From positions 47,983 through 67,982 of the forward strand of contig MU005966.1 in NCBI GenBank assembly GCA_010093745.1: 20,000 nucleotides of DNA, read 5' to 3'. The notes under the pieces were generated by a model. The model searched no databases, had not been told where the DNA came from, and was given only the letters and a program-made list of their open reading frames with translations. Origin of the DNA: Piedraia hortae CBS 480.64. Taxonomy: Eukaryota. A program made the position numbers and the translations under genes. This document shows positions 1-16,574 of this stretch, piece by piece. The first letter of the stretch is position 1. Each line of letters opens with the position of its first letter.

Positions 1-2407
1 CACCGAGAATGATAAGATAGCGCATCGGGGGACGCTGGTTCAGCGCTTTGCGCCACTTGTACGTGGCCTCCAGGTCGGAGAGCAGCAGACCGCACCAATG
101 ACAGGCGGCCCAGCTGCGAGCGTACCAGCCAAGGATGATGGCGAGGGCGTAGAAGCCGAAACGTTTGTATGGCGTGCAAATGTCACGAATCATGACAGTA
201 GCAAGCAGGATCTGATACGTGAACTGCAGCTGCACAGGAACGGTCCAGAGCACACCGACGCAATAATGGCTGACAATGGCCGGCACGGCGTTGGGCATCA
301 GATAGGCCAGTTCGATGAGATTGTCCATGTAGACGCCAAAGTTGGGTGGTGCCACCACGTACGGCCACGTCGACCAAGACACCGATGGCAGATACTGCAA
401 CGCCGAAGTGATGTTCATCGACAGCAGGAAATATTGGGCTGTGGCGATGATGAGGATGGGCACAAACAGACGGGGGGCACGGCGCAGCGTCTTCTTGGCC
501 ACGTCGTCCAGCCGCCCATTCTTAAGGTAGTTTGTGGTCAAGAATCGCGTGGCAGTCAAGAAAAAGGGACCTATCCAGAGCTGTGTGAGGATGACGTTGC
601 CGAGAATCTTGGCTAGATATTTTTCAGCCTTGGGGTAATGAGCAATCGGGCCAAAGTCCTCAGAGATGTACGGCCAGAAGGTCTGACAAAAATGATGCAC
701 TGACACGGCAAAACAGGCCACAGCAACCAGACCAGCGAGGTAGTCAATCTGCTTCTTGGGTGGAGGCGGAGTCTCGATGTGCAGTGGGTTGGTGACGCCC
801 TTGACATCCGTCTCGGGCGGGTGCACGCGGACCTGGCCCTCCATCTCCTCGGCAGTAGGTGGTGCGCCCTGCTCCCTGAATGGCAGACCCGGCTGAAGAT
901 AGCTGGTGATGGTCGCGCTCTTCTCATCAAACGGGTTCTCGATGGCATGCGTGTCGGAGAAGGGATCGTGGTGCTCTTGCTGCGGCGCCTCATCGATGCG
1001 GCCAAGAACGGCAATTTCATCCCCTCGGTCGCCCGAAGACCGCCCTTCGACTAGCGGACGCTCCTCCGGTCCGTTCTGCGGCGTGGAGGATCGCGGCAGA
1101 CTGACCATACTAGCATAGGGAGGCACAGGCGTCTGTGCGCCCGAGCGCGGTGTGTGAAGACCGCTGTACATGGGCAGCGGGGTCTGGATACCGGGAGTCG
1201 AGTAGCCCGACGAGGTGCCAGACACAAAGTATCCCTTCTTGGTCGTCGAGCCATTTGACGAGCGCTGGTCCAGCGTGCCCTCGTTGGATGGCGGGGGCGC
1301 CCGCTTCGCGCGCCGATACGACGGCCGCATCTTGTGGAACGGCGTACGGCGAAAGCAAGTGTTGATCAGCGCGAAGATGCCAAAGATGCTGCAGGCGGCC
1401 GCGACAACGCCAGCAAGAACACGCAGACCACGCGGCCCACCCTCATCCTTCCACTTCCTCTCTGACTCGACGCCAAACGCGCTGTAGCCGCGCAAATCTG
1501 GGTCCTCTGTGGTGCACTGGGACTCGCCCGCGCAGCGTTTGTCGTAGTCGTGATGATCTGCGGCTGACATGGTCGACGAGTTGAAGAAGGCGCGCACGTA
1601 AAGCACGTAGGCTCGCGAGTTATCGCGCAGAGGCGGACCACCCATGTAGGTTGAGTCGCCGGTGGAGAAGGTGTGCAGAAACAGCGGCTGCCCAGCACGC
1701 GGCAGGGAGCGCTTCTTCTTGGTTAGCGACCGCGTGTTGTTGTCCGCGACCCAAAAGTCAACATTGGTCTTGTTCCAGTCCATGCGGACATGCGTAAAGT
1801 CGTCCCAGATGCGTACGCCGGCATGCTCGAGCGTTGTGAAGTTGGTGGTCCGCGTGGGATCGGGGAACTCCCCATTGACAAGGTACGCAGCTCGCGCCTC
1901 ATCTGACGAATCCATGTTCATGAGCTCTGTACTGAGGCTCTCCGAGTCGTTGAAGCGCAGCTGGAAGGCGAGCGAGACACCGCCCGAAGCCGAGCCAGCG
2001 GGCCTCAGACCAGCACGGAAGGTGCCGTATTGGATATCCTGGCGAACAGAGCGGAGGCTGGCTCCGGTGACGAGATGATCTTGGGTTGCCGGGTCTGTCA
2101 ACAACTCCAGAACCTGATTTTCGGTGCTGAAGAAGGTGTTGCTGGTCAGCTTGACGTTATCCGGGCTCGCGCCGACGCGGTAGATGGAGTTCCATCCCTT
2201 CTCCTTGCGGTGCTTAAAGTCCTGCGCGATCCACTGGTCGGTGTCAATCGACTTGGACTCGTTGAAGTAGACGACGATGGCGTCAGTGAAGCGCTGCGAA
2301 GTCTTCGGATCACGGAAGCCGCAGGGGCAGTCCTTGGGCGACAGCTTGGCAGCCGACGCCAGCTGAGAGCCCAGCACCAGGCCACAGAGGCCCAGAGAGA
2401 GCAGCAT
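1..2407 (-). CDS. Signal peptide + GH16-like (ConA/laminarinase fold) domain + TM helix + S/T/P-rich linker + acyltransferase-3 domain fusion protein; 3'-partial (runs off window start)
   Basis: Manual translation gives an open frame from ATG 2407 to position 2 (802 codons, no stop), with an in-frame TAA just upstream. It is absent from the ORF track because its stop lies outside the window. N-terminus MLLSLGLCGLVLGSQLASAA is signal-peptide-like. GH16-type motifs: CPCGFRDP, SLRSVRQDIQYGTFRAG, FTHVRMDWNKTNVDFWV, MGGPP, YVRAFFNSS. TM LRVLAGVVAAACSIFGIFALI at ~1360-1425. AT3 region from ~750: IDYLAGLVAVACFAVSVHHF...LRRAPRLFVPILI...GVLWTVPVQLQFTY. Confidence 0.88.
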   Translation of the reverse strand, partial: MLLSLGLCGLVLGSQLASAAKLSPKDCPCGFRDPKTSQRFTDAIVVYFNESKSIDTDQWIAQDFKHRKEKGWNSIYRVGASPDNVKLTSNTFFSTENQVLELLTDPATQDHLVTGASLRSVRQDIQYGTFRAGLRPAGSASGGVSLAFQLRFNDSESLSTELMNMDSSDEARAAYLVNGEFPDPTRTTNFTTLEHAGVRIWDDFTHVRMDWNKTNVDFWVADNNTRSLTKKKRSLPRAGQPLFLHTFSTGDSTYMGGPPLRDNSRAYVLYVRAFFNSSTMSAADHHDYDKRCAGESQCTTEDPDLRGYSAFGVESERKWKDEGGPRGLRVLAGVVAAACSIFGIFALINTCFRRTPFHKMRPSYRRAKRAPPPSNEGTLDQRSSNGSTTKKGYFVSGTSSGYSTPGIQTPLPMYSGLHTPRSGAQTPVPPYASMVSLPRSSTPQNGPEERPLVEGRSSGDRGDEIAVLGRIDEAPQQEHHDPFSDTHAIENPFDEKSATITSYLQPGLPFREQGAPPTAEEMEGQVRVHPPETDVKGVTNPLHIETPPPPKKQIDYLAGLVAVACFAVSVHHFCQTFWPYISEDFGPIAHYPKAEKYLAKILGNVILTQLWIGPFFLTATRFLTTNYLKNGRLDDVAKKTLRRAPRLFVPILIIATAQYFLLSMNITSALQYLPSVSWSTWPYVVAPPNFGVYMDNLIELAYLMPNAVPAIVSHYCVGVLWTVPVQLQFTYQILLATVMIRDICTPYKRFGFYALAIILGWYARSWAACHWCGLLLSDLEATYKWRKALNQRPPMRYLIILG

Positions 2408-2880
2408 TGCAGAGGGGAGAGCGCGGAGAGACAGAATGTAGAGAAGATCAGATTACAGGGCAAAAAACATGGGGGGCAGCTTGCTACTTCGGCTGCTTCC
2501 AGAGTGACACCACGCCCGACGAGAAAGAAGACGGCGGAAAAGTGGGTCCAGCCGCCGCGGCAGGACCCAGAATGGAGCCGAGCGCTGATGACAGGGTTTG
2601 GATTGACGGAAATTTAGCTTTGTGGCGCGGGGCAAGCATGCCGTTGGGCTGCTCGTGAATATTGGTTTTGCGCAATTCTTTTTTGTTGTTTCATAAATAG
2701 CGCAATAGCGCGCGCATGGTAATTAACTGATAGTGAGCGCTGGGAAAGTCTGATAACCCGCATGATGACCCGTTTGATGGGATGGCCCGTTGGATGGCAA
2801 TCAACCGCCACAGCACTCCAAGCTGCCACAACTCCTATACATGCTTTAACCGCGCAGCAGTAAAACTTCGAAGTGAATTT

Positions 2881-2967
2881 AGCCAACGTTGACACCCATC
2901 AGCCATACGTTAAGCTCCACCAGCCATTGCAGCTCTCGTCAGCCACAGTGTTACACCCATCAGTCAC
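2881..2967. repeat. Degenerate ~20-bp tandem repeat, about 4 units
   Basis: AGCCA/AGTCA recurs at 2881, 2901, 2922, 2941 and 2962; units gttgacacccatcagcca and gttacacccatcagtca are near-identical. It lies just downstream of the AT3 stop codon. Confidence 0.6.
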
Positions 2968-2989
2968 GACATTCTCTCCAATTAACCAT

Positions 2990-4444
2990 CTACTCCATTA
3001 GCCACTCAAATGCCTTTGCCGCCAGCTTTTGGGATGGCCGGTCAATTGCCCGGTAGTACAATTCGGTCGCTGCAATGGTGGTTATCGCGCCCACCACAAA
3101 CACGGCAAAATTTGCCAAAGCCGAAGACGTCCCATTCTCGGTAAGATGCAGGTAAAGTTTGATGCCAGCCGTCCAAAGAACGAGGCTTTGGGCGACAAAG
3201 ATGCTCAAAGACCGCCGTCCGATCGCCGTAAGCCACCTAGCAGATAACACTCGCTGGGCTCCTGCAGTAGTCTCCACAACGAGAAGTAGGCCGAAGATGA
3301 CGAGGAAATTGTCGAGGCGTGGCAGCGGGTCGTCCATGACAAAGTCTTTGAGCGTCATGTTCTCGTAAATATCGAGGTGAGGGTGGAGTATGAGTTCCTT
3401 GTTTGCATAGTGAGGCCATACGCTCCAAATGACCTTGAAAATGAGCCCCGCCAGGAGCATTCCCGCCGCAGGAATCTTCACTGGGACTTTCCAATGTTCT
3501 GTTATCTCTACCCCCTCTTCGAGACGCTTTTTGAGGACAGGATTGATCATGTAGCTAGCCAATAGCAGCGCGGCTGCATCGTAGAAGCCCCAGGAAGCCA
3601 TCCACCACGCCCCCAACGCGAACATGAAGATGTACGGGCGGTGCCAAGTCGGGCGCACATATGGCAGAACGACCATCAAAAAGTACACCGTCCATGATTG
3701 CTGGAAAATGAGAGAAACACTCCACAACGTATTGGTCGGCCAAAACTTGTTAGCCGCCTGCCAAAAGTAGGATCGCACGACCCAGAAAATTCCAAACATG
3801 GAGTTGAAGGCAACGAGCGCGCTGTCCGGAACGTCCGGAGCTGGCAGCGAATCGTTAGGACGTCGCTCCTTGAACTTTTCAATGTAATGAACACCAAGCC
3901 CAGCGAAGATGGCCATGCTGAGGCCAGAAGCGATGGAAACGGCAATAGCCATGCGAATGATGCGGCGGATGACGGTACCGCTGAGACTGATGGGCGTTGG
4001 GTTCGTCAAGAAGAGAATGCAGATAGAACGGGCGCTCAAGACAAAGAAAAAGGAAGCGATGAGCGAAGCGTTCCAAGCCCAAGAGGAGAGAACGATGCGG
4101 ACCACGCTCATGCCAGTAGACGCATTGTGGCCCGGGTAGATGATGCGAGGGATAAAAGTCGCGAAAAAGGTCCAGAAGAAGCTTGAAAGAACGATGATAC
4201 CGCGAAGTCCGTCGAGGTGTTTGTGCCTTGGCGCATTGCCATCAGCCAGATCAACAGCAGTGGAGTCATTGGCAGGCGACGTCGACGGCTTCATCGCGCG
4301 CAACCGCGACATGAGGCCCGACGACGTCTTCTCCTGCTGACCCGACATGGCAGATGTCTCAGTGGGCGTGCTAGTCCCGGTGTTTGGGTTTGGCGAGGCC
4401 AGGGGGAAGGAGGCCATGGGCGTGCTCTCCTTTGGGGTGTCCAT
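2990..4444 (-). CDS. Acyltransferase-3 family multi-pass membrane O-acyltransferase (484 aa)
   Basis: ORF 2990..4594. The likely start is ATG 4444 (MDTPKEST), preceded by a pyrimidine-rich leader. AT3 hallmarks: RHKHLDGLRG, FFFVLS, RRIIRM, LWSVSLIFQ, IGRRSLSIFVAQ, TELYYRAIDRPS. About 10 hydrophobic segments; no intron needed. Confidence 0.87.
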   Translation of the reverse strand: MDTPKESTPMASFPLASPNPNTGTSTPTETSAMSGQQEKTSSGLMSRLRAMKPSTSPANDSTAVDLADGNAPRHKHLDGLRGIIVLSSFFWTFFATFIPRIIYPGHNASTGMSVVRIVLSSWAWNASLIASFFFVLSARSICILFLTNPTPISLSGTVIRRIIRMAIAVSIASGLSMAIFAGLGVHYIEKFKERRPNDSLPAPDVPDSALVAFNSMFGIFWVVRSYFWQAANKFWPTNTLWSVSLIFQQSWTVYFLMVVLPYVRPTWHRPYIFMFALGAWWMASWGFYDAAALLLASYMINPVLKKRLEEGVEITEHWKVPVKIPAAGMLLAGLIFKVIWSVWPHYANKELILHPHLDIYENMTLKDFVMDDPLPRLDNFLVIFGLLLVVETTAGAQRVLSARWLTAIGRRSLSIFVAQSLVLWTAGIKLYLHLTENGTSSALANFAVFVVGAITTIAATELYYRAIDRPSQKLAAKAFEWLME

Positions 4445-5319
4445 TGCGGCGACGGGATGTTGGGAGAAGAGGTGAGGTGAACAGAACCAAAGAGGAAAGG
4501 GTGCCTGAGTGGGGGCGGATGCTAAATGTGGCCCGAGCGGTGCGGAATTCGGGGCGGACAGCGTTTTCGCCGGACAGACGAAAAGCCGCTCCATGCCCTA
4601 ACGCCACCGCAGGTGCATTCACGCTTTCCTGTTTGGGCCGCATCGCGTGTCGCAGGTTGGGAGCATCACTACCACTTTCAGACCCGTGGTGTGAGCTGCA
4701 TCGTGGGGCCGGGGAATGAGCTGTGTACCTGGCACGTCCAATCGTGCCTGCGCTAGCCTCCTGACTCGTCGACAGCGTCGGCGCTGTCAACTCGTCGCTG
4801 TCGCCCGCCTGCCAACCCCTTTCCCCTGCCAATAATAGCCACCCCCACCCCTGTCAGATACCACTGCCGTCAGCGTCTCCACCTTCGTCACTCCACATGT
4901 GTAGTTCCCCACCCAGCTGTCATTTACGCAGGCAGAAAAACAACAAAAACCTAACGACCCCTGCACGTGGCGTTGCTGCCAATCCCGGCAAGCATAATCA
5001 ATTCCGGGGCTGCCAATTCGCTTTCCCCACTTGACCCAATCATTGCTCGGCCGATTCCGCGCCGCTACCTTAATTACGCGGGCTTATGTTGCTGCGGGTG
5101 GGTCCGTATCTTTGCAAGAAATCCATCGTTTGGTTCTTCACTCTTTCCTGCCACCCTCACCCACCCACCGACTCTCGTTTTTTTCCTTCTCAACCCCTCA
5201 ACGCTTCCCCTTGTTTGTATCTCGCACCGACCCCGCGTCTTTTAACCACTTTGATTTTGCCGCCGACTTTCCCAAGAACATCACCCAAGCGCCGCTCCGG
5301 CTGCCCACGCTCGCTCATA
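4445..5319. promoter_or_regulatory. Divergent (probably bidirectional) promoter region between the AT3 and GT2 genes
   Basis: Head-to-head ATGs at 4444 (-) and 5320 (+), 875 bp apart, with CT-rich tracts ahead of each ATG on its sense strand. Individual sites are not verifiable. Confidence 0.5.
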
Positions 5320-6983
5320 ATGTTTCCGCGTCTTTTCCGCTCCCACGGGGCCTCGAACCTCACTGAGCTCTCTCCGTTGTCCGACGATGGCTCTCCGCAC
5401 AGTTCCAGCTTTCCGCTGCCAGCGCAGTCACAGGCGCCAGCCTCCCAGCCCAAAACTTTCAAGAAGGCGATGCTCTCGATGCGGGACCACTGGATGCGCT
5501 TCTCGGACTGGCTGACGGAATGGACGCCCGTCATCCTTGTCACCAGCTACTGGGTCGTTTGCACTGCCATCTTTGTCATGTGCAATGAGCCAGCCATTCG
5601 TTTCTTTTATTACTTTTACATGGTGGTCAATCTGTACATTGCCGTCTGCGCCGCGGTGGAATCGTTTCTCGGCTTGACGCCTGTGCGAGATGCTGCCATG
5701 GCCGCCGACAAGGCCGATGCCACGGGCAAGTTTCCCAGCTCCGACGAGGCTCTTCCGACTCTGGACATGGTTATGGTTGCATACTTGCCCAACGAAAAAG
5801 ACATCGTTGTTGGACAAGTTATGTACGCGCTTGAGGAGCTCAAGTACCCGCGCGAGAAGCTGCGAATTAGTGAGTGCTTGCTGGTGTCAGGTGGATTTGA
5901 CTGACCATCCAGACCTTGTTTATAACACTCCGAAGCCCATCGAACCGGTCGAGACGCAGCTGCGTGAGCTGGACGAGCAGTACGACCAGCTGCGGGTCAT
6001 CAAAGTGCCCAACTCCAAGTCCAAGGCCGACAACCTCAACCATTTCTTCTCTCTTCCACCCTCTGGCGCTGATTACACGGGCGTCTTCGATACCGATCAT
6101 TGCCCTCACCCGTACAACCCCCGCTGGGCTGCCGAGCGTTTTATCCTCGACAAGCCCGATATCGTGCAAGGCCGCTGCATCGTCTACAACACCAACGAGT
6201 CGTTCTGGGCGAAAATGATTGCGATTGAATTCGACAAGATCTATGCCATTGCGCATCCTGGCCGCAGCCGCATGTTCCAGTTTGGTCTCTTTTGCGGCAG
6301 CAACGGCTGGTGGCGATCGGAGGTGCTGCGTGAGCTGAAGATGCACGGCGAGATGTTGACTGAGGACATTGACTCTGCCCTGCGCGCATACGGTGACGGC
6401 AACCGTGCCGTCCACGACATGAACGTGCTGTCGTATGAGCTTGCGCCTAATTCGTTTGGAGCTTTCTGGAAGCAGCGGATGAGGTGGACCCAGGGTAAGT
6501 TTTGACGTCATAGGCTGGATTGGCGGCCGCTTACGAAGTTCAGGCTGGACGCAGGCTTCAATTGTTCACTTGCCGCTTATCTGGACTAACCCGCCCCGTG
6601 GCCATCGTGTGCCGCAGGAGCGCCTCGGTCTCTTCTCGCTGCTCTTTGTGCGTGAGCTGAGCTACTACTTTGTCTCGCAGCACACGTGTCTCCTGCTCAG
6701 TTTCATCATCACGGGCTGGCCGAACGATGCCGGCAGCTTTGTGCGGCTCATTTTCTTCCGCTACCCGATGGCCGAGTGGTTCTTGTTCATCACCATTCTC
6801 TGTCTTATCTTCACTCTTTGGTTCACGGATCGCGTGCGCAGCGAATTCACCAGCTGGCGGGCGATGATTGTCTTCTCGATCATCTACACGCCCTACCTGA
6901 TCCTGCAGAGCACCATGGGTCTGTTTGGACACGCAAGAGAACTGGTCAAGTACTCTTCGTGGAATCCGACGACGAGAGGGTGA
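5320..6983 (+). CDS. Processive glycosyltransferase family 2 (cellulose-synthase-like polysaccharide synthase), 523 aa; exons 5320-5869, 5913-6494, 6544-6983
   Basis: Three ORF-track fragments join in frame after removing two GT-AG introns (550+582+440 = 1572 nt), giving LRINLVYNTP and QRMRWTQGWTQAS across the junctions. Motifs: VAYLPNE, SKADNLN, FDTD (DxD), VQGR, GSN, LTED, QRMRW (QxxRW). Two N-terminal and several C-terminal TM segments. Confidence 0.92.
5870..5912 (+). other. Spliceosomal intron 1 of the GT2 gene (43 nt)
   Basis: GTGAGT donor, CTGAC branch site at 5901-5905, CAG acceptor; removal restores the reading frame. Confidence 0.9.
6495..6543 (+). other. Spliceosomal intron 2 of the GT2 gene (49 nt)
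   Basis: GTAAGT donor, variant branch GCTTAC, CAG acceptor; removal restores the QG/W frame. Confidence 0.85.
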
Positions 6984-7264
6984 ATGAAGAGGCGGGTTAT
7001 ATGCTTTCAATGACGGGGCACGCAAGGGAATCTGGGAACAAAGGATGGCCGAGAATGGTCACATGGATCATGTCAGGAGGACAAAATCGATGCCAACGCT
7101 GCGCCGCGGCGAAGATAGAGGAGTTGGGGGATGGCGATAACGCGATAATCATAAAATTATTCACCAATTTCAGTCGTAGCGGCTGCTGCCAGCCTGCAAG
7201 GTGAAACAGCGATATGAAGTGACGTTTCCTACATTTTGCATTGAGAGGGATTTGTGCAACCCAA

Positions 7265-8506
7265 ATGGCAACAAAGAGTAAGTTGGACCGCATCGTGTTG
7301 ATGCCCGTAGGCACGATTGGATGCGGCAAGACGACGCTCGCAGCAACGCTGCAGAAGCTGTTTGGCTGGGCTCACGTCCAGAATGACGATGTGAACGTCA
7401 AGTCGGGCAAGGCGCGTGCGTTTGCCATGTCCTGCGTGCAGGAGCTGAAGAGCCACGCAGCGGTGGTGGCAGACCGCAACAACCACCTGCGGCGGGAGCG
7501 AGACCAGCTGATGGTCGACGTGGCCGCCAAGGTGCGCACGAGATTGGTGTGTCTGCATTACGTCCATGATGTAGCGAACGTTGGCCGCATCCAGAGAATC
7601 ACGCAGGCCAGGGTCATTGAGCGCGGCGACAACCATCAGACGATCAAAATGTCGAACGGCGTTGAGCAGGTCTTCGATATCATGAAGGGCTTCATCGACC
7701 GCTTCGAACCGGTTAATGTCAAACAGTCGCCTGACGATCAATTTGACCTCGTCATCAATCTCGACCCGTGTGCATCGACCGCCGACAACGTGGAAGTTGT
7801 ACTGCGAGACATGTGCAAGGCGTATCCAGGTCTTATCTCCAACGTACCGAATAAGGCTGCAATTCATGCAGCTGTCCGGGGTAAACATATACCGTCAGGG
7901 CCTGCGCTTACGACCCAGCCATCTACCCTCCAGGTAGGACTGTCTGCACCCAAGGTAGAGCAGTTACCCAGGGGACCGCCATCCGCTTTCGCGGTACAGC
8001 AGAAGCTGCAGCCGCCTGCAATGAAAGTTGTGTATTTTGCCGTGCACGTTCCGTCTGATCGCGTGGTTCAGCTCCTGGACGACGTCTTTCGCGACGTCGA
8101 GGCCCAAGTTAGCGACATGTACCGAATGCTGAAGAAGGGTAATCGTTTACAGCGCACATTTCACGTCACGCTCATCCACCGAGCATCCTCTGGACAGCAT
8201 GCTGATTATTGGAACAAGTTGATGAAGCAGCAGCAGCTCACCAACGGCCCGCTGGGCCAGTGTCGCGTGCGCATGGAAAGGGTTGTATGGGACTCTGAAG
8301 TCATGGCGTTTGTTGTGCGTCTCGAAGGGAGATTTCGCTCAGTTAACAACGTTGCGCATATCACGGTAGGGACGGTGTCAGACGCGGTGAAGCCGGCTCA
8401 GGCGAATGTTATGCTGGACAAATGGCTTAGGGAGGAGGGTGGAAGTGATATCATGGTTGATGGCGTGGTCGAGCTGGAGGGTGCAGCAAAGGCGTTTACG
8501 TATTAA
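7265..8506 (+). CDS. Trl1-type polynucleotide kinase + 2',3'-cyclic phosphodiesterase (tRNA ligase 'healing' domains) with no ligase domain, 413 aa
   Basis: First ATG at 7265. Kinase: VLMPVGTIGCGKTT (P-loop), HVQNDD, ADRNNH, RVIERGDNHQTI. CPD 2H motifs FHVTLIHR and AHITVGT. These match the central and C-terminal domains of fungal Trl1. Confidence 0.9.
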   Translation: MATKSKLDRIVLMPVGTIGCGKTTLAATLQKLFGWAHVQNDDVNVKSGKARAFAMSCVQELKSHAAVVADRNNHLRRERDQLMVDVAAKVRTRLVCLHYVHDVANVGRIQRITQARVIERGDNHQTIKMSNGVEQVFDIMKGFIDRFEPVNVKQSPDDQFDLVINLDPCASTADNVEVVLRDMCKAYPGLISNVPNKAAIHAAVRGKHIPSGPALTTQPSTLQVGLSAPKVEQLPRGPPSAFAVQQKLQPPAMKVVYFAVHVPSDRVVQLLDDVFRDVEAQVSDMYRMLKKGNRLQRTFHVTLIHRASSGQHADYWNKLMKQQQLTNGPLGQCRVRMERVVWDSEVMAFVVRLEGRFRSVNNVAHITVGTVSDAVKPAQANVMLDKWLREEGGSDIMVDGVVELEGAAKAFTY

Positions 8507-8683
8507 TCTGCATGTATGCTGCAGGTCCGACATTCCAACATGAATGACCAACTCGATGGTACCATAAGCGTTCAGGCTGATGGAACGCCGAGGACAGGCT
8601 AGATAACGCCACCAGGTAAGCACGCTATTCAAAAGGCCCTTTTGCCCCCCCCTTCCTCCCCCTCCTCCCCCCCCCCCCTTACA

Positions 8684-10090
8684 ATGGCGATTTTCGGTGA
8701 TCCAGAAAAAGGGGAGGATAAGTTCAAGGCCGAGGACGATGGGTCGCCAATTGACACAATTGCGGCGCTTGTGCAGGAAGATCACCAGCATGATATCAAG
8801 TTGCGCACAATGTCTTGGCAAAAGGCCGCTTGGCTTCTTGCCGGCGACCAGGTCTGTCTTGCTATCATGGCCCAGACATGGTCACTGTCGGTATTGGGCT
8901 GGGTGCCGGGACTCATAACAATGCTGGTAGCTGGTGTCTTCTTCTGGTTCACTTCGATGACGATGCACAAGTTCATCATGAGGCACAGCCATATTCGCGA
9001 CATTTGCGACTTTGCGTCGTACTGCGTGGGTGGCTCGAGGATTGCGTACGAGGCAGCAGGCGTGATGCTCACTATCAACAATGTCATGATCATCGGCTTT
9101 CACATCTTTACCGGTGCAAAAATAATCAATACACTGAGCGACCATGCACATTGTACCGTCATCTACTCCGTCATTGTCATGATATTGGGCATCATTATGA
9201 GCCTGCCTCGCACCTTGCGCCATGTCAGTCTCATGAGCATGTTTTCAGCGGCCTGTATGGCCCTTTCTATCTTGCTGTTTGTCGTCTACGTTGGCATCGA
9301 AGACGCTCCATCCAATGGACCTGGCAAAAAGGTCTACCCCCAACTTGGGCCGGTAAAATCTTACAACTACCCACCCAAGGGGACCAGTTTCGTCGGCATT
9401 ATGAATGCCGTCTTAAACATCACCTTTCTCTGGGTGCCTCAGATCCTGTTTCCGACCTTTATTGCGGAAATGGAACGGCCTCAGGACTTTCCAAAGGCTC
9501 TTGCCGTGCTGACAGCCATCTCGGCTGTGCTGTTCACCGTTCCGCCCGCCATTGGCTTCTACTTTCTTGGGCAGTACTCGACTGCCCCGGCATTTGGCAG
9601 CCTCGGCCTGCCCAAGTTCAAGAAGTCGTCGTTTGCGTTTGTCATTGTGCCGACGCTTGTCATTGGCGTCATCTATGCAAATGTCAGCGCAAAGTTCATC
9701 TATAACCGCATCATGGGCTCGTCAAGACATGCGCATAGCCATACTGTCACCGGCTGGTCGGCATGGATCGCGGTGATGGCGACCATCTGGGCTGTGGCCT
9801 TCATTTTTGCTGAGGTGATTCCGTCCATGGGCGATTTCTTGTCTCTGCTCGGCGCCGCTTTTGACTCTTTCTTTGGATTCATCTTCTTTGCGCTGGCATA
9901 TTTCAATATGCATCGGGGCAACTACTTTGCTGGGGCAAAGCGGTCGCTTGCAACTATTGGTCACGTCCTCGTTATGTTGGCGGGTTTGTTCTTGCTTGGA
10001 CCTGGCCTCTACGCTGCCGTTGATGCCATCATAGATGATTATTCCGGGTCTACAACGCCTGCCTTTACGTGTGCAGATTCGTCTCTGTAA
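8684..10090 (+). CDS. Amino acid permease, AAAP/Aa_trans family (fungal Mtr-like neutral amino acid transporter), 468 aa
   Basis: ATG 8684 in ACAATGG context after a C-rich tract. LRTMSWQKAA, LGWVPGLI, IRDICD, SLPRTL, FIAEMERPQDFPKAL, FAEVIPSMGDFLSLLGA; about 11 TM segments. Confidence 0.92.
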   Translation: MAIFGDPEKGEDKFKAEDDGSPIDTIAALVQEDHQHDIKLRTMSWQKAAWLLAGDQVCLAIMAQTWSLSVLGWVPGLITMLVAGVFFWFTSMTMHKFIMRHSHIRDICDFASYCVGGSRIAYEAAGVMLTINNVMIIGFHIFTGAKIINTLSDHAHCTVIYSVIVMILGIIMSLPRTLRHVSLMSMFSAACMALSILLFVVYVGIEDAPSNGPGKKVYPQLGPVKSYNYPPKGTSFVGIMNAVLNITFLWVPQILFPTFIAEMERPQDFPKALAVLTAISAVLFTVPPAIGFYFLGQYSTAPAFGSLGLPKFKKSSFAFVIVPTLVIGVIYANVSAKFIYNRIMGSSRHAHSHTVTGWSAWIAVMATIWAVAFIFAEVIPSMGDFLSLLGAAFDSFFGFIFFALAYFNMHRGNYFAGAKRSLATIGHVLVMLAGLFLLGPGLYAAVDAIIDDYSGSTTPAFTCADSSL

Positions 10091-10342: not shown

Positions 10343-11455
10343 TCACCGCGTCCCATTAACCCCCTTCCTCCCCTCTCCCAACTGTCCAGCAACGCATGCC
10401 GCCTCCCTGACCGCTCTGGCGACCGCACCTCTCACATTCCCCTCCTCCAGCACCAGAAGCCCACCAATCGTACACCCTCCGGGGGTGCAGACTTTATCCC
10501 TCAGCACAGCGGGATGTTCCTTTCCCTCGAGCAGCAACGCCGTAGTACCGCGCATCGTCTGCGTCGCCATGATATAAGCCTCCTCCCTAGGAACACCCAT
10601 CGCGATCGCGCCAGCAGCCATACTCTCCACCAGCAACGCCACAAAAGCAGGCCCAGATCCACACAACGCCGTGCAAGCATCCATGCAGCTCGCCGGTAAG
10701 CTCACCACCCGCCCGATCTTCGAGAAGATATACTCCACCACTGCGCGATCAGTAGTCGTTACTGCTGTTCCACCTTTCCCTTCCCCATTCTCAATCGAAA
10801 CAACAGACATACTCTCCCTCACCGCAGCAGCCGTATTGGGCATGACCCTCACAACCCTACACCCCCCATCCAGAAACCCACGAATCGTCCCCTCCGTAAT
10901 TCCCGCACATATACTAACCAGCAACTTCCCCCTCAACGCCTCACCAATTCCATCACCACTCAACACCTTCTCCACAGCATACGGCTTTACGCAAAGCAGA
11001 ACCACATTCGCGGCGCGCAGCGCGGGGAGTATATCCCCTACATGGACCGTAACCCCCGACGCGAGCGTGCCAAGTTCGGTTTTTATGCGCCCCGCACCCC
11101 GCGCGCTTGGCACGCACGCGTGGAATCTCGTAGGGATGGGGAGGGCTGAGTCGTTTCGCGCGGGTATGCCCGCATCTGAGCTGGAGAGGAGACCCCGCAG
11201 GATCGCGATGCCCATTGTTCCGCAGCCGAGAACGGTTAGTGTTGATTCATTCCCAGTGGGGTTGTGGGTATGAATGCTATCGCTGGAATTGGTGTTGGAA
11301 TCCATGGTATCGCCGTTGCTGGTGGTCGTTTTGCTATTGCCGCCGGCGTAGGGATGCAGTTCCGCAAACTTCTTCCGTAGCTCGGCTTCTTGCGCAGCGA
11401 GAGTTGCTTCGAGGATCCAGTTGGGTGTTAGTTCCCGTTCGGGTTGTTCAGGCAT
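10343..11455 (-). CDS. PRO3: Pyrroline-5-carboxylate reductase
   Basis: VLGCGTMG Rossmann motif, VLLCVKP, RVMPN, TALCGSGPAF, VCTPGGCTI. Start uncertain: ATG 11455 next to the poly-A run and gap, or ATG 11305. Confidence 0.93.
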   Translation of the reverse strand: MPEQPERELTPNWILEATLAAQEAELRKKFAELHPYAGGNSKTTTSNGDTMDSNTNSSDSIHTHNPTGNESTLTVLGCGTMGIAILRGLLSSSDAGIPARNDSALPIPTRFHACVPSARGAGRIKTELGTLASGVTVHVGDILPALRAANVVLLCVKPYAVEKVLSGDGIGEALRGKLLVSICAGITEGTIRGFLDGGCRVVRVMPNTAAAVRESMSVVSIENGEGKGGTAVTTTDRAVVEYIFSKIGRVVSLPASCMDACTALCGSGPAFVALLVESMAAGAIAMGVPREEAYIMATQTMRGTTALLLEGKEHPAVLRDKVCTPGGCTIGGLLVLEEGNVRGAVARAVREAACVAGQLGEGRKGVNGTR

Positions 11456-11472
11456 CTTTTTTTTTTTTTTTT

Positions 11473-11712
11473 NNNNNNNNNNNNNNNNNNNNNNNNNNNN
11501 NNNNNNNNNNNNNNNNNNNNNNNNNNNNNNNNNNNNNNNNNNNNNNNNNNNNNNNNNNNNNNNNNNNNNNNNNNNNNNNNNNNNNNNNNNNNNNNNNNNN
11601 NNNNNNNNNNNNNNNNNNNNNNNNNNNNNNNNNNNNNNNNNNNNNNNNNNNNNNNNNNNNNNNNNNNNNNNNNNNNNNNNNNNNNNNNNNNNNNNNNNNN
11701 NNNNNNNNNNNN
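11473..11712. other. Assembly gap (240 N) flanked by a poly-T homopolymer
   Basis: Run of N preceded by 16 T (11457-11472). Confidence 0.99.
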
Positions 11713-12329
11713 AAGGTTTAAAAAGTGTGACTGCATGATGGTTTATTCCTTGTCTGTGAATAGCGATTAAGCAGAAAAAAATCTCGGCGTCACAGCTCCC
11801 TGCTCCGCATCTATCACGACAGGTTGCGGTATATCTCGATGGTCGTAGCACTTGGTACATAGGGGGGACTTCAGGTTCTGATACGGAGTGGAGACACAGT
11901 AGTACCACAGTGAGTAGGGGAGGTACGTGTCAGAAGCTCAGAGCACGTCACCGTAGTGTAATTTTCGAGCACCGTGGCACCATAGCGTCAAGTGACTTGA
12001 CACACTTATCCAAAACCTGGAGTTTCTCCTAAATAGACTTTTGCGTGTCGTAGCACTTGGTGAGGTCTTCGCATCTTGGCCAATGCAATGCTTTCACAAT
12101 TGGCAGATGCGTGAATCAGGGGTCCAAGAACACCGAAAGTGAATGGTCGTTCCCAGTAAGTGTAGAGATTTGGCTCTCGTGGGTGAGAGTGCGCAGCGAC
12201 CCGAAGAGGACGGAGCGATAGACGGAACCAGGAACAGGACAGTTGTAGATGTGTATGAGTTCATATTAGTGTCGATATGACAGTGTGAATGACCTGCTAT
12301 GCAAGTGCCCTGCATACGCGCTAGCGGCG

Positions 12330-12915
12330 ATGCTTGAATTCAAGAGTAAGTGCGAGGAGCGATTAGGAAAAAGTGAACCAGATTCGGAGCGAGAAATGAG
12401 GCCGATTTTACTGGCTGACGATGAGAGGCAATACTGCTTGCTGCAGGTCCAACCCCACATAAAACTATCCCGGAGACGCAGCAGCCAATGGGATAATTAC
12501 GGCTTCGTTGCCGTTCAGGAAACGGACTCCCTAGTTTCCCCTTGTGCGGCGCTAAGAATCATGCTGGAGTGCCTTGATAAGACGGTCGTTCTGACGAGAA
12601 ATTGCAGCAAGTCCAGCTGCTGGAATTGTACGAGCAGAGTAATGTTCCACAAAGGATATGGATAAGGAACTACCAGACTTTGATTGCCGAAATCCATGAA
12701 CGAATGGTTGTGGACTCCATGATTTTCAACGGCGACGCCCATCGAGTCAAGCTCATCAAGCGAGAGGTTAATTGCAAGGCCGGGCGCTACCACCATTATC
12801 CATTCGGTGGCACAAATGCACTCTGGGTCCGCAGTTTGGCAGAAGCTGTGCAAACTTTAGGGAAACATAAGGTACATGTCGAAAGACGGATGGGGAAATA
12901 GATGGGGACGATTGA
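12330..12915 (+). pseudogene. Relic copy 1 of a repeated uncharacterised gene family
   Basis: LQQVQLLELY...IWIRNYQTLIAEIHE...GRYHHYPFGGTNALWVRSLAEAVQTLG aligns by eye with the copies at 13963-14710 and 15842-16160. Apparent frameshift near 12600. Homology upstream of ~12560 is not established. Confidence 0.65.
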
Positions 12916-13457
12916 AACGGTCGATACAGAAGCTCAACAGCAGTTGTGATTCACTTAGATAGACGTAAAATGTGTTGGCATGAAGCCTCGTTGCCATGAG
13001 TGTACGATGCCACTGCGCGACACCTCTTACACCAGCAGCTGCACCCTAGGTTTTGTCCTCACAGAGGTTTCCCTTAGGATCATGTCGCATGCAACATAGT
13101 GAATGCGCCCTGCTACTGGCAGAGGTGAGTCATCGAGTAAGACTGCATGCTGGCGGTCTTACTGCATGTATGACCACTTGCTTACGGTCATACAATTGAT
13201 GACTCTTCATACGAGATTACGCAATGGCCTACCGGTCCAGAATATATTCTCTGATGTCCCCTCGTAGATAAACTTGTATTCACTTGTACACACATCTCTA
13301 CTCTCCAGCCTTCGTTCTCATTCGCACATATGATCTGTTTCAAAATGAACAGCAACAATAACTGAGAGTTGTATGGTCGATGGCTTTGTGCATGTCAAGA
13401 GTCTACGCACTTATTGAGTCCTCCGTCGACGAGCGACTGGTTCGTTTTGTTATTTAG

Positions 13458-13690
13458 CCATGTCTTTGCTATGTCTTTGCTGATCTTCTCAGCTTGTGGA
13501 GAGAGGGGGTTAGCACTCGAATCAATAACTGGAGGAAGAAGATTGCTAAGTGTTCGACCACCCTATACCATCATGATTGGCATGGTAGAGTTCCATTTCG
13601 TTTGATTCAGGGGTTGCTTCCTGTTCCAAGAGTCCATACAAACTACAGTAAACAATTAAGGTCTTTCAGATCGATGACCATACATGTTAA
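13458..13690 (+). pseudogene. Possible highly diverged fourth relic of the same family
   Basis: ADLLSLWREGVSTRINNWRKKIAKC...PFRLIQGLL loosely parallels VQLLELY...IWIRNY / RNFRELVRDC...PCELIPGKL. The similarity is weak and by eye only. Confidence 0.3.
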
Positions 13691-13962
13691 GCTTAGACGG
13701 CGAACGTTTGCCGCTAAGTAGCTTTAAACCAATGATTTGAGCGAGTATCATAGAAGATCATACAGTGCATCCAACCTAAACACAAGCGATCATTATCTGT
13801 TTGGCCATGCAATAAATCAGGCGCTTTGATTGCTTTCACTATCCCATCAATTATTGCGGTGTTTCCACGATAGAATGATGCATGAGTGCTAGGCTCTTAC
13901 AGTCTAGGGATCACGGATACATAAACGTTTTGATTATGGATACGCATACCGGAAACTAACAT

Positions 13963-14710
13963 TTACCTATTGTCATCGACGCTTGGAACCCAACTTGGCG
14001 AGTGTATGCTATTTATACCCAGCGTTCTGACAGTCTCACCCAGGCTCCGTGCCCAGTAAACACCCGCGCCACCCCTAGGATAGATGCGGTATCTACCAAA
14101 CTCTCCACTAAGCTTTCCAGGAATTAATTCGCAAGGGGGAGTTTCCTCTCCAGTGTTCAAAGCGTTGGGAATAAAAAGCTCCTGAATCTCCTCAACCAGA
14201 ACACTGTAGTTTCTTAACCGGAAACAAGAAGAAAGGTGCTTAAGGCAGTGAATTTCCAGCACTTTAACTTCTCTCACCTGGTTTCTTCCAACGGTAAATG
14301 CAGCTTGATAAAACCAGCAATGCTTCTGCAGAAACTCTTACCGAAAGTCGATAGGTTGAATCTCCAACTTTAGCAAGTCGAGATGGAGGTTTGCGCATTC
14401 AAAAGGCAGGCCCCACCACGCCTGGCCAATAACCGCGCGGTCCTTTCTGGACGCATCGACAAGCAGTGTTAGTCTCTTGATTGAGGCAAAGGTATCTGGC
14501 TGTAAACGTTTCACTCTCATCGCGAATGTCAGCGGAAGACACCGACTTCTTCATGCGAAGGGAGGAACGGTGGAATGCAAGAAGTCGAGCCTCGTTGTTG
14601 ATCTATTTGCAGGCAAGGAGGAGGGAAAGGTCTTTAGCGCTGCTGGCTTCTTCGAACGCGAGCGCGTAGATTTCATTGCGGATCTCCGGCGGCATCGTTA
14701 ATAAAGACAT
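13963..14710 (-). pseudogene. Relic copy 2 (most complete): fungal F-box-like N-terminus plus family C-terminal domain
   Basis: From ATG 14710: MSLLTMPPEIRNEIYALAF...LSLLLACK*INNEARLLAF, with TAG at 14603-14605. Frameshift ~14520-14550 into RVKRLQPDTFASIKRLTL, TAA at 14338-14340, then VREVKVLEI...RLRNYSVLVEEI...GRYRIYPRGGAGVYWARSLGETVRTLG. Confidence 0.75.
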
Positions 14711-15841
14711 TGCGTCGGGAATCATAAAAGGCCGCTGGATAGAGAAAATGTTGGCTAAATAAGGTTGTCGAAGCGTAGTGTTATGCGTACGAATCGACGC
14801 CCACGGTAAGAGTGACAGAAAGTGTGGAGTGCAGTGTGTGGAGTTGGGGGTACGACGTACTTAGGTAATCTAAGCCCCACTGATTTGTGCTCGGCCACCG
14901 ATCTGGAGCTTAAAAGAGTCAGTGCGTGGAGAACCGGCCATGGTACCGGAATGCCAAGGGGGCTTAGTCTCAGCTTTGGTGTCAACCAGAGTCATAATTA
15001 TGTTTCATTTTACTCTACCCCGTGCTGTCAGTCGACATGTCAGTTCCGTGAACCGTACTATGGTTCAGCAAGTGGAGGTTTTCCTACAATAGCAGGGAAA
15101 CCTTCACAGGGGAAGAAACCCAGATGCTCCTGAGATACCTATATGCTCACGTTCTCACAGCAACACGGCTCAAAGCCAATTATTGATAAGATAGCGGTAT
15201 TCATCAGGTTGCCTGGTACATGGCGAAGAGAAAAAGTGGATAATCACTCATGTATCGTTTGTTCAATTTTATGTTGGCGTAAATAGCTCATTCTTGCCTG
15301 CTTAGCAACAAACGTACTGCTTCAGATTTCGGCAGTGCATTCGACATGACGACGTCCTTTGACGCGACCACGACCCATGGCGAACAACTTCGGTGAGGTA
15401 AAGACCTAGGATGTCCGGTACCCTATCTACCTCAGTCAAGCGTCTGATAACTTATTATGACATCAGGTGGTGGCGAAACTGAACACCAATTGAGAATATT
15501 GCCCCAAGCTTCTGGGGTTGATACTGATCCTTTTGAGCTATAGCATGATCAACTAACAGGACGAGCCAATTTGTCAATGATATAATGTTTAACTAGTGGA
15601 TGGCTTGTTACATGCACAAAGCCATTGACCACACAAAGTTTGCCAACATTCAACTGTCTTCATCTCAGGGTGTACGCCATTTCGCAGTCTATTCCATGTT
15701 TCGAGCCCAATATACGTCTACACCGCTGAATGGGTATATATGATAACGCCCGAACTCGAGACCAATCTCTGCCTGAACTAACCCGATTTGAGGAGCATCA
15801 CCTTGAAGAAACATGAAGTCTGCGTAAAACCTCCACGCTGT

Positions 15842-16160
15842 CTAGAATGTATGAATAGGCACAAAGATAGCTGACATCCAACTGTCGCCATCAAGGCTTG
15901 GTATCCGATTTTGGAACATACTGCCCGTCTCTCTCAGCATCTCGAAAGTATCGGCCACACTCCGTACCCAGTGTACGCCCGCGCTGCCTAGTGGGCGAAT
16001 GCGGTATCGTCCAGACCCCCCATCAACCTTTCCATCAACAAGTTCGAATTCGGGGACCATTCCTACTACGCATAATGCCACTGGGGAGAACCAGCACATC
16101 ATAACAGTCCCTCACCAGTTCTCGGAAATTCCTCTGCCAGATACTACACTGCCAACCCCG
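15842..16160 (-). pseudogene. Relic copy 3 (C-terminal fragment) of the same family
   Basis: IWQRNFRELVRDCYDVLVLPSG in one frame, then a frameshift (~16060) to FELVDGKVDGGSGRYRIRPLGSAGVHWVRSVADTFEML...IPSLDGD. Confidence 0.7.
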
Positions 16161-16574
16161 CAAAACATTGATTCATAATTTATGTCAAAATGTTTAATAG
16201 TGAATACAACAGTCCAAACAATAACTATACAATACCCCATGCAATACTCTTACAAGGGTCCAACCAACATTGGCTGAACTCTTCTGACAACAATTGATTC
16301 AAGTCTTGCTCGACTACAGACACAAGTGCCGTTGCATTATCTTATTAACATTTGGTGGAAAGCAGGCTCAGCCCCCATACCGCCCATACATCGGATATCA
16401 AATGATTCGATTAATATGGTTCACAAAGATGTATATGATGATATACACAGGCTACGTACTGGTCGCCTGAAAGACGCCTCCGTCTTCCGTCCATCCGCAC
16501 ACTTCCAAATCCTCCTCCAGGATACGTTGCCTAAGAAACATCAGAAATCATAGAATCGAAAGTGCAGATAGTAC

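Follow-up and report, generated by a model that had tools for sequence, protein, structure and literature searches.

A fungal fusion of a GH16-fold ectodomain with an AT3 acyltransferase domain, clustered with a GT2 synthase, is a candidate for coupled glycan O-acylation

Introduction

What does a fungus do with a protein that joins a glycoside-hydrolase fold to an acyltransferase-3 (AT3) domain? The question is raised by a 20,000-nucleotide stretch of the genome of Piedraia hortae CBS 480.64 (GenBank assembly GCA_010093745.1, contig MU005966.1, positions 47,983 to 67,982; hereafter the window, whose numbering is used throughout). A long minus-strand frame at its left edge had been predicted, from the letters alone, to encode such a fusion, and the two genes upstream encode a second AT3-like protein and a glycosyltransferase of family GT2. 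We find that the fusion belongs to a conserved fungal family whose ectodomain has the GH16 fold and appears to have lost the canonical catalytic site, and that the three genes stay together in most of the lineages surveyed. The reading we favour, with a probability of roughly 55%, is that they specify a synthase-coupled glycan O-acylation machine, composed of the GT2 synthase, the GH16-lectin/AT3 fusion and the AT3 paralog, which would be a eukaryotic analogue of IcaA/IcaC or OafA.

Results

One gene encodes a membrane protein with two folds

Positions 2..2407 of the window hold, on the minus strand, a single uninterrupted frame of 802 codons, evident from translation and from a listing of open reading frames (ORFs) that admits open ends. 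It opens with an ATG at 2407 and is stop-free up to the left window edge; the gene was absent from the original ORF track because its frame runs off the window. Across the same interval, the longest overlapping frame in any other phase has 204 codons, and rough arithmetic with about 3.5% stops per random codon puts the chance of 802 open codons at ~1e-12. The G+C content of the left half of the window is 52–62%. A public gene model of the same gene, P0003 (from NCBI/UniRef), comprises 944 residues and is identical to the window translation apart from 43 residues that it lacks; with the corresponding 129-nt segment retained, the full length becomes 987 residues. P0003 also supplies the C-terminal ~185 residues, which fall beyond the left edge; its C-terminus extends about 30–50 residues past the AT3 domain. 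This single gene encodes a membrane protein of ~950–990 amino acids from a Dothideomycete fungus, and positions 2..2407 hold its first 802 codons.

From the N-terminus, the protein begins with a signal peptide (residues 1–19; 2351..2407), read from the sequence as a hydrophobic core followed by ASA/AK and modelled as a helix over residues 3–17. There follow a GH16-fold β-sandwich ectodomain (residues 28–286; 1550..2326), a single transmembrane (TM) helix seen in both sequence and model (residues 326–354; 1346..1432), a disordered Ser/Thr/Pro-rich cytosolic linker (residues 355–548; 764..1345) and the N-terminal part of the AT3, or TmAT, domain (window-protein residues 549–802; 2..763). The original prediction had described an uninterrupted minus-strand frame of more than 800 amino acids, with the GH16-like part at ~2330–1580, a linker of ~200 residues and an AT3 domain from ~750. 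The frame is as described, these landmarks agree with ours (1550–2326 and 763) to within about 30 nt, the linker measures ~195 residues, and the domain calls, domain order and topology were borne out by Pfam, an AlphaFold2 model and the structure searches Foldseek and VIA. That the gene was hidden does not hold, because the 944-residue public model exists.

The AlphaFold2 model of P0003, computed with 28 aligned homologs as input, has a mean predicted local distance difference test score (pLDDT) of 66.8. The β-sandwich (residues ~28–286) reaches pLDDT 80–90 and a helical bundle occupies residues 513–914, with residues 356–503, the equivalent of the window-protein linker 355–548, at pLDDT below 50. 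Six N-glycosylation sequons fall within residues 1–325 of P0003 versus two in the other 619 residues, four ectodomain cysteines (C27, C29, C292 and C298) are invariant in the family alignment, and a basic stretch, RRTPFHKMRPSYRRAKR, directly follows the TM helix. By these features, the sandwich is extracellular and the linker cytosolic, the latter because the basic stretch RRTPFHKMRPSYRRAKR comes after the TM helix (positive-inside rule). The AT3 domain is thereby oriented N-in, as bacterial AT3 proteins are described to be (PMC7448272).

The linker of the P. hortae protein contains the motifs LPMY and VPPY. Of 28 family linkers, 18 have motifs of the form [LPVA]PxY, and those of the Aureobasidium-like clade have none; the motifs were rejected as a family feature on that count. 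Paired TP[LV]PxY ... TPxPxY motifs lie at window positions ~1100–1250 (residues ~400–430) and recur in relatives in the family alignment A1. They resemble the [LP]PxY motifs to which the WW domains of Rsp5/NEDD4 bind, and hint at a possible ubiquitin-dependent trafficking of the protein.

The ectodomain has a GH16 fold without the canonical catalytic motif

The GH16 profile PF00722 matches the window protein at 24.5 bits (gathering cut-off 22), in keeping with the profile hit that had been expected, and matches full-length relatives at 24–33 bits in seven of the ten scanned and at 17.5–20 bits in the other three. Compared with the PDB by Foldseek, the modelled sandwich finds Bacillus lichenases at the top (1gbg, E 3.1e-10, target-normalised TM-score 0.80), then laminarinases and Crh5. 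The Foldseek-independent VIA search returns 3i4i_A with Z 21.3 and 2.5 Å root-mean-square deviation (rmsd) over 203 aligned residues; Z values against GH16 enzymes range from 18 to 21.

The catalytic columns were located by aligning the family profile to the Fibrobacter lichenase chains 2r49 and 1mve (E 0.003–0.008), which sets the family pattern ..l-e-l-D-l-l-N-m.. over V-E-V-D-I-E-V-L. The pattern E.D.(.)E, that is, the GH16 catalytic motif ExDx(x)E, is found in 0 of 28 members and is likewise absent from four more distant ones, basidiomycetes included. At the nucleophile column, 12 of the 28 have Glu and the rest Ser, Ala, Asn, Gly, Gln, Tyr or Asp; the helper-Asp column retains Asp in 26 (Glu in one, Asn in one). 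The acid/base column holds Met (12), Leu (15) or Cys (1) and is acidic in none, and the residue after it is Asn in all 28. A set of polar and aromatic residues on the sheet is conserved (N164, N178-G179-E180, W201, W211 and W247), with D161 kept in 26/28 and N164 and E180 in 28/28.

By these counts, the GH16-fold domain appears to be CATALYTICALLY dead at the canonical site. We call it lectin-like because ExDx(x)E is lost in 28 of 28 members, and would not file it as a GH16 enzyme; the conserved polar and aromatic set indicates a putative ligand-binding face that has been retained. The original prediction had proposed that a glucan-binding GH16 fold takes the part played in bacterial AT3 proteins by a fused SGNH domain. 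Glycan engagement fits the lost catalytic motif and the clustered GT2 synthase, and the SGNH role in its catalytic sense falls away: as the ectodomain gives no sign of esterase or transferase chemistry, it could replace SGNH only as a module that holds the acceptor.

The AT3 domain keeps the pore histidine and the RXXR motif

The AT3 profile PF01757 scores above its cut-off in six of ten full-length family members (four of six and two of four, at 33.6–43.8 bits). The AT3 match foreseen for the P. hortae protein is thus realized in its relatives, while the protein itself stays below the cut-off (27.5 versus 31 bits). On the window-truncated fusion protein PF01757 gave no match, an NCBIfam scan left both the fusion and its paralog P0002 without one, and a family-profile sequence search of the PDB found no AT3-type chain at E ≤ 1. 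By structure, residues 511–899 of the whole-protein P0003 model, a putative ten-helix TmAT core, match the acyltransferase HGSNAT in the VIA search (8jkv_A, Z 13.9, rmsd 5.3 Å, 284 residues aligned). None of the ten full-length members has an SGNH domain; Pfam gave only N-terminal PF00722 and PF01757.

Two motifs have been defined for AT3 proteins, one in the first TM helix of the bundle (TMH1), R/K-X10-H or DxxRx10H, and an RXXR motif that follows TMH2/3 (PMC7448272, PMC12423673). In OafA, the TMH1 Arg and His are both essential, with R14A and H25A leaving 0.07% and 0.33% of the wild-type signal (PMC7448272). We fixed the alignment register of the fusion family by profile–profile alignment to the paralog and by the YLDGLRG-x8-HH motif of basidiomycete members. 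The TMH1 His is then encoded at 692–694 (His572 in the window protein, His529 in P0003), and the position is His in 27 of the 28 aligned ascomycete members. The RXXR arginines, R600 and R603 in P0003 numbering, are present in 28/28 and also in four distant members. Two basidiomycete members from Ustilaginomycotina, P0241 and P0259, retain the complete YLDGLRG-x8-HH motif. The alignment thus points to a pore His and an RXXR motif under constraint, and to a cytosolic Asp/Arg pair that has been replaced. Two turns before that pair, position 510 is Arg or Lys in 27/28 and Gln in the P. hortae protein; a basic residue there might stand in for the lost Asp/Arg.

A stand-alone AT3-like paralog is predicted to pair with the fusion

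The gene directly upstream of the fusion (2990..4594, minus strand) encodes P0002, a protein of 534 amino acids. Its Pfam matches are to PF01757, weakly (15.4 bits), and DUF418, and a Pfam scan of its relatives in two metagenome loci, L002 and L030, gave no match. An alignment of 17 P0002-family proteins (A2; five with internal stops, from L009, L036, L044, L055 and L068, were excluded) matches the AT3 region of the fusion family over 351 columns by hhalign, with a probability of 98.3% and E 1.7e-14. The P0002 model (pLDDT 59.8) finds only TmAT proteins in the PDB at Z ≥ 8, namely 8jkv_A (HGSNAT; 13.0), 8tu9_B (12.2) and 8xik_A (GWT1; 10.0), the next match scoring 6.9. In TMH1, the paralog family keeps G-L-R/K-G, and its RXXR motif is also kept (R211 invariant, R214 in at least 90%). 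By alignment, the fusion and P0002 have lost complementary halves of DxxRx10H, the Asp/Arg in one and the His in the other, and basidiomycete fusions keep the motif whole. Most relatives of the paralog (at loci such as L001:6700-8040 and L030:3501-5000) seem to carry an intron immediately behind GRRSLS; the copy in the window has none there.

We also predicted a complex of fusion residues 505–944 with P0002 residues 118–534, in three runs that started from single sequences without alignments. The interface score ipSAE was 0.82 in all three runs and 0.00 in the best of three controls; among solved complexes, 51 of 78 attain the mark used, as do 2 of 108 mismatched pairs (39 of 65 and 2 of 126 for eukaryotes). 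The runs agreed in at least 87% of contacts, with partner pLDDT of at least 82. Residues 588–598, 648–664 and 688–722 of the fusion, for instance, face residues 199–209, 256–280 and 301–334 of P0002. Because the interface uses equivalent helices of both chains, the prediction is of a pseudo-two-fold dimer; HGSNAT is a dimer in its solved structure. An invariant His of P0002, His404 in an ELxxH loop, lies opposite the near-invariant IHP His787 of the fusion in the hhalign alignment, and both fall in the predicted heterodimer interface (P0002 405–410, fusion 788–795).

The fusion and paralog genes travel with a GT2 synthase gene

Beyond P0002 lies a divergently transcribed GT2 gene (5494..6983, plus strand) that matches PF13632 at 55 bits (cut-off 27). 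Its three exons (5494–5869, 5913–6496 and 6546–6983) translate exactly to P0077, an NCBI protein of P. hortae with 465 amino acids. P0077 carries DxD-type, TED and QRMRW motifs, and a phmmer comparison with the cellulose synthase BcsA (5ej1; E 6.3e-11) pairs VFDTDH with VFDADH, TED with TED and QRMRW with QQRGRW, which marks it as being of the processive, membrane-embedded β-glycan synthase type. The NCBIfam models CelA and PgaC_IcaA score far below their equivalog cut-offs (PgaC_IcaA 53 bits against 422), and P0077 is for that reason a relative and not an orthologue of these enzymes. Its introns are very short (5870–5912, 43 nt; 6497–6545, 49 nt). In-frame ATGs upstream of the annotated start (opening MLSMRDHW... 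and MFPRLF...) leave room for a longer N-terminus; relatives have ~515 residues. The identification of this gene with the Zymoseptoria tritici gene ZtGT2/CPS1 was rejected: ZtGT2 is XP_003857553.1 on chromosome 1, and the closest Z. tritici relative of the cluster GT2 is XP_003855770.1 (MYCGRDRAFT_35809, on a 3.86-Mb chromosome). The accessible part of the ZtGT2 paper (PMC5653360) makes no mention of an acyltransferase, of adjacent or neighbouring genes or of GH16.

The conservation of this neighbourhood was surveyed in 71 metagenome loci that encode fusion relatives, searched with the window genes. The start of the fusion gene is visible in 54 of them, 31 of which have at least 6 kb of upstream flank. 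A GT2 gene was called from an exon-2 match of at least 100 bits on the opposite strand, 1.5–5.7 kb upstream, and a P0002 homolog from a match of at least 80 bits. Both are present in 27 of the 31 loci. After dereplication at 95% nucleotide identity, which gives 48 clusters overall and reduces the 31 loci to 22 lineages, the trio of fusion, GT2 and paralog is present in 20 of 22. Two gene orders occur: GT2(-)/paralog(+)/fusion(+) in the window, L001, L002, L039/40, L051/52 and L071, and paralog(-)/GT2(-)/fusion(+) in the remaining lineages. We compared all ORFs of at least 90 codons along the full length of L002 and L030 with the 21 other lineage representatives; the only ones matched in three or more were ORFs within the trio genes, so the flanks are not otherwise syntenic. 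Fusion and GT2 also have locus tags two apart in four named genomes (LTR85_010643/010641, LTR08_008312/008310, MBLNU230_g6660/g6658 and R9X50_00480200/00480000). Aureobasidium pullulans is among the relatives with all three genes (homologs P0045, P0049 and P0106). The trio is a cluster that has been maintained through rearrangement of gene order.

The fusion is an old and widespread fungal family

A word-indexed search returned 74 homologs of nearly the same length at 29–95% identity, named sources being Hortaea, Meristemomyces, Teratosphaeria, Zasmidium, Acrodontium, Dothistroma, Lecanosticta, Aureobasidium and others; for many of them, PF01757 and PF00722 matches are precomputed under the label 'GH16 domain-containing protein'. 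An exhaustive profile search of 1.84 billion representatives gave 1407, 547 and 208 matches at E ≤ 1e-3, 1e-10 and 1e-30, respectively, and many of the top matches span profile positions ~5–1018 in one stretch. Endocarpon pusillum, Candelaria pacifica, Violaceomyces palustris and Thecaphora frezii have both Pfam domains in the same order, and metagenome loci L002 and L030 encode the fusion as single uninterrupted ORFs of 1074 and 1218 amino acids. The architecture is therefore that of an old, conserved fungal family found in Dothideomycetes, lichen fungi and relatives of smuts. The claim that domains so arranged belong to one gene is upheld by these distant single-ORF relatives, and the architecture survey that had been proposed as a check shows the same domain order across two fungal phyla; the fusion is not the unusual one it had been taken for, with 208 representative clusters at E ≤ 1e-30.

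Acrodontium crateriforme (P0014 and P0030) and Zasmidium cellare (P0013 and P0043) each have two copies of the fusion per genome, and the duplicate fusions each share a contig with their own GT2 gene (P0083 and P0103, and P0101). Two fusion-plus-GT2 copies in some genomes suggest that the entire cluster was duplicated long ago; this duplication may correspond to the pair of gene orders in the metagenome loci.

Contigs of a putative RNA run cross the linker without a joint

One public sequencing run (X1), which contains 83% of the sampled words and whose kind we could only guess as RNA, yielded contigs that were placed on window positions 1–9000. Their sole joint, 5869->5913, has GT..AG ends and is intron 1 of the GT2 gene, and a loose poly(A) end lies at 7172, ~190 nt beyond the GT2 stop. 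No joint was found within 1–2407 in these contigs. Splicing that would part the two domains, one of the outcomes that the original prediction had named as refuting it, is thus not seen, with the reservation that no single contig spans the whole ORF.

P0003 removes the GT..AG segment 923..1051 (minus strand; 129 nt, 43 codons) as an intron. A run X1 contig covers 732–1230 without a gap and so crosses this segment, which is stop-free and encodes ...ENPFDE; this aligns with the DPFDEK- and YPFDDK-type motifs of relatives whose sequences run on through the region. The segment is probably coding and the annotated intron false. There is weak evidence that the fusion ORF is expressed unspliced.

Other features of the window

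Downstream of the GT2 gene, a 421-residue ORF (7241..8506, plus strand) combines the fungal tRNA-ligase kinase domain PF08303 (169 bits) with the cyclic phosphodiesterase (CPD) domain PF08302 (177 bits). No adenylyltransferase (ligase) domain was seen upstream in frame, for which reason its product may be a stand-alone kinase-CPD protein. An amino-acid transporter gene follows (8642..10090, plus strand; PF01490, 85 bits), then a 521-residue frame for pyrroline-5-carboxylate reductase (10343..11908, minus strand), for which a later start or an intron is suggested because the Pfam domains begin only at residue 224. The region ~11000–17000 is gene-poor and AT-richer, with G+C falling to 0.41–0.49, and 12000–16900 has no frame above 131 amino acids. 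In the right-hand part of the window no tRNA was found, and 10 ORFs gave no Pfam match.

Discussion

A synthase-coupled acylation machine and its rivals

How would the three proteins work together? In the machine we favour, the GT2 would polymerise a β-linked polysaccharide and extrude it at the membrane. The AT3 domain of the fusion would take an acyl group, which is probably acetyl, from acyl-CoA in the cytosol and pass it outwards through its pore. On the outside, the dead GH16 domain, kept close to the membrane by its TM helix, would serve as a lectin that holds the nascent chain over the pore, and the chain would be O-acylated as it emerges. The His-less P0002 and the fusion AT3 domain would form a pseudo-symmetric heterodimer. 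Acyl-transfer chemistry would be left to the AT3 domain itself, with the GH16-like domain only holding the acceptor; for the stand-alone AT3 proteins Oac and IcaC, too, the chemistry is proposed to be performed by the AT3 domain (PMC12423673). A bolder version, tentative and on the whole doubtful, would make the heterodimer of complementarily decayed TmATs an obligate one that docks on the BcsA/PgaC-like GT2 and so produces a hitherto undescribed O-acylated β-glycan of the outer wall or matrix in Dothideomycetes and lichen ascomycetes. In that version the fusion itself would extend to the smut-related basidiomycetes, where it would have the ancestral, complete motif.

Several observations weigh against the coupled machine. 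The PF01757 match of P0003, which covers profile positions 6–322 of 326, scores below the cut-off, and the AT3 Z of 13.9 is only just above the level that VIA calls common for helical bundles. Within DxxRx10H, the Asp position of the fusion family is Ala in 27/28 and the Arg position Val in 24, Thr in one and Leu in three of the 28, and in OafA the R14A change abolished activity (PMC7448272). The C. pacifica member, P0210, has Asn in place of the TMH1 His, and in the paralog family that position is Thr, Ile, Val or similar, with no His. With the His missing from one protein and the Asp/Arg from the other, either or both could be catalytically impaired. The complex prediction used single sequences and may owe its pass to the likeness of both chains to solved TmAT dimers, and it cannot discriminate between hetero- and homodimers. 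In sequence, the ectodomain resembles solved GH16 chains weakly (E 5.5e-4 to 0.05), and the catalytic-column assignment accordingly depends on a modest alignment together with the missing motif. Two of the 22 lineages have no strong GT2 nearby: the L063–L066 cluster, with only a weak paralog match, and L068, which has the paralog and a GT2-like match of only 59 bits. For expression, the fusion ORF is spanned in full by no single run X1 contig, and the run possibly contains DNA. Finally, the literature covered, which leaves out most subscription journals, yielded no description of a GH16–AT3 fusion or of this fungal cluster.

Some of these points lend themselves to other explanations. The GH16-like domain could be an active glycanase or transglycosylase that uses non-canonical residues (for example Asp161, Asn164 and Glu180) to trim or cross-link a polymer, with the AT3 domain acting independently. 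The persistence of the polar and aromatic set (D161 in 26/28, N164 and E180 in 28/28, W201, W211 and W247) would suit such an enzyme, the best structural matches are true enzymes (lichenases, laminarinases and Crh5), and hydrolases are common in bacterial and fungal exopolysaccharide clusters. We nevertheless consider it unlikely: ExDx(x)E is found in 0/28, hydrophobic residues or Cys fill the acid/base column throughout, the nucleophile column varies, and the GNBP/betaGRP proteins of insects are a precedent for GH16 folds that bind glucan without catalysis. It seems similarly improbable that neither AT3-fold protein transfers acyl groups and that both are a degenerate scaffold or conduit partnering the GT2, in the manner of IcaD, PgaD or BcsB, and anchoring the polymer through the lectin. 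This would account for the complementary decay of DxxRx10H, the fusion without Asp and Arg and the paralog without His, and for the low Pfam AT3 scores (P0003 below the cut-off, the paralog at 15.4 bits, two paralog relatives without a match). It sits poorly with the strong constraint on His529 (27/28) and on the RXXR arginines (28/28), and with the full motif of the basidiomycete members. Variation in the TMH1 motif need not imply inactivity either, since GWT1, with neither the Asp nor the His, is still an acyltransferase, and in HGSNAT the position of the AT3 His is taken by Asn (PMC12423673).

The coupling itself could be apparent only, if the fusion acylated some other acceptor (a wall glycan, glycoprotein or glycolipid) and clustering with the GT2 reflected co-regulation. 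GH16 folds mostly recognise β-1,3 or β-1,3-1,4 glucans, which are products of other synthases, and in two of 22 lineages the fusion is present with no strong GT2 match close by. We judge this quite improbable in view of the trio's presence in 20/22 lineages despite inversion or transposition, among flanks that are otherwise not conserved, and of the bacterial precedent for a GT2 synthase with an AT3 modifier, IcaA/IcaC (PMC12423673). It is hardly credible that the long frame is an artefact, whether of faulty assembly or of two adjacent genes between which the linker happens to be open. The linker is of low complexity and poorly conserved, and P0003 drops 129 nt of it; against this stand the same domain order in single ORFs of lineages at 31–59% identity and in two fungal phyla, the lack of a stop between the domains and of a joint in the run X1 contigs, and a topology that is consistent with itself throughout (signal peptide, outside domain, TM helix, cytosolic linker and N-in AT3).

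Among described machineries for extracytosolic O-acylation of glycans, the accessible literature names the bacterial AT3 and AT3-SGNH proteins, the Cas1/CASD1 type and HGSNAT. AT3 proteins of filamentous fungi are mentioned there only in natural-product clusters (PMC12423673), and the AT3 fusions named are those with SGNH (bacteria), NRF (animals; PMC12423673, which is also the source for fungal AT3 proteins) and a racemase (VanT), with none to GH16. As far as we found, the architecture is already present in databases under a generic name, and neither the lectin with its dead GH16 fold, nor the complementary loss of motif residues, nor the conserved synthase cluster has apparently been described. 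If the coupled machine exists, the trio would define a compact and genetically tractable pathway for a modified surface polysaccharide. The trio occurs in black yeasts, in Dothideomycetes associated with plants and in lichen fungi, which depend on poorly defined matrix polymers for stress tolerance, adhesion and host interactions. The fusion would also exemplify how, in nature, a glycoside-hydrolase fold has come to serve an acyltransferase as the module that holds its acceptor, and the paired, complementary loss of the TMH1 motif would offer a probe of TmAT pore function.

Comparison with known systems

The ectodomain shares with the GH16 enzymes (lichenases, laminarinases and the fungal Crh transglycosylases) a β-jelly-roll with a conserved concave face; unlike them it has no ExDx(x)E (28/28), and in that respect it resembles non-catalytic binders. 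HGSNAT and GWT1 provide the closest solved folds for both AT3-type proteins (8jkv_A, Z 13.9 for the fusion and 13.0 for P0002; 8xik_A, Z 10.0), and show that TmAT enzymes can accommodate changes in the TMH1 motif. They differ in their acceptors, in the low identity (8–11%) and in having no GH16 domain. The GT2 has parallels in ZtGT2/CPS1 and AfTFT1, small membrane GT2s by which filamentous fungi make minor polymers of the outer wall or matrix (PMC5653360; bioRxiv 10.64898/2026.09.17.752320), yet ZtGT2 is a different gene from that of the cluster, which has MYCGRDRAFT_35809 as its closest Z. tritici relative. AfTFT1 was expressed in Komagataella phaffii, and the accessible part of the preprint on it names no neighbouring genes (bioRxiv 10.64898/2026.09.17.752320). 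In the animal NRF-domain AT3 proteins, such as Drop dead of Drosophila and NRF-6 of Caenorhabditis elegans, the AT3 bundle is likewise preceded by an N-terminal domain that is extracellular (PMC12423673). In the fusion the N-terminal domain has the GH16 fold, and Pfam finds no NRF domain. We know of no synthase clustering for the animal proteins.

Two further analogies are bacterial. The AT3-SGNH proteins (OafA, OafB and OatA) bear their SGNH domain at the C-terminus, after an 11th TM helix in the OafA/OatA type, and the fusion has none there; its soluble domain is N-terminal, of GH16 fold and without the catalytic triad of SGNH domains, other residues stand at the Asp and Arg positions of DxxRx10H, a cytosolic linker of ~195 residues is inserted, and the protein is eukaryotic. 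What the two share is the plan of an AT3 domain fused to an extracytoplasmic, glycan-facing domain that an extra TM helix puts outside, with the TMH1 His and RXXR kept. The staphylococcal ica locus differs from the fungal cluster in that the latter has two AT3-fold proteins, one of them with a lectin-like domain, and shows no IcaB-like deacetylase or IcaD. Common to both is a processive GT2, in ica the poly-N-acetylglucosamine synthase IcaA, encoded beside AT3-family membrane protein that would act on the polymer being extruded, in ica the proposed O-succinyltransferase IcaC.

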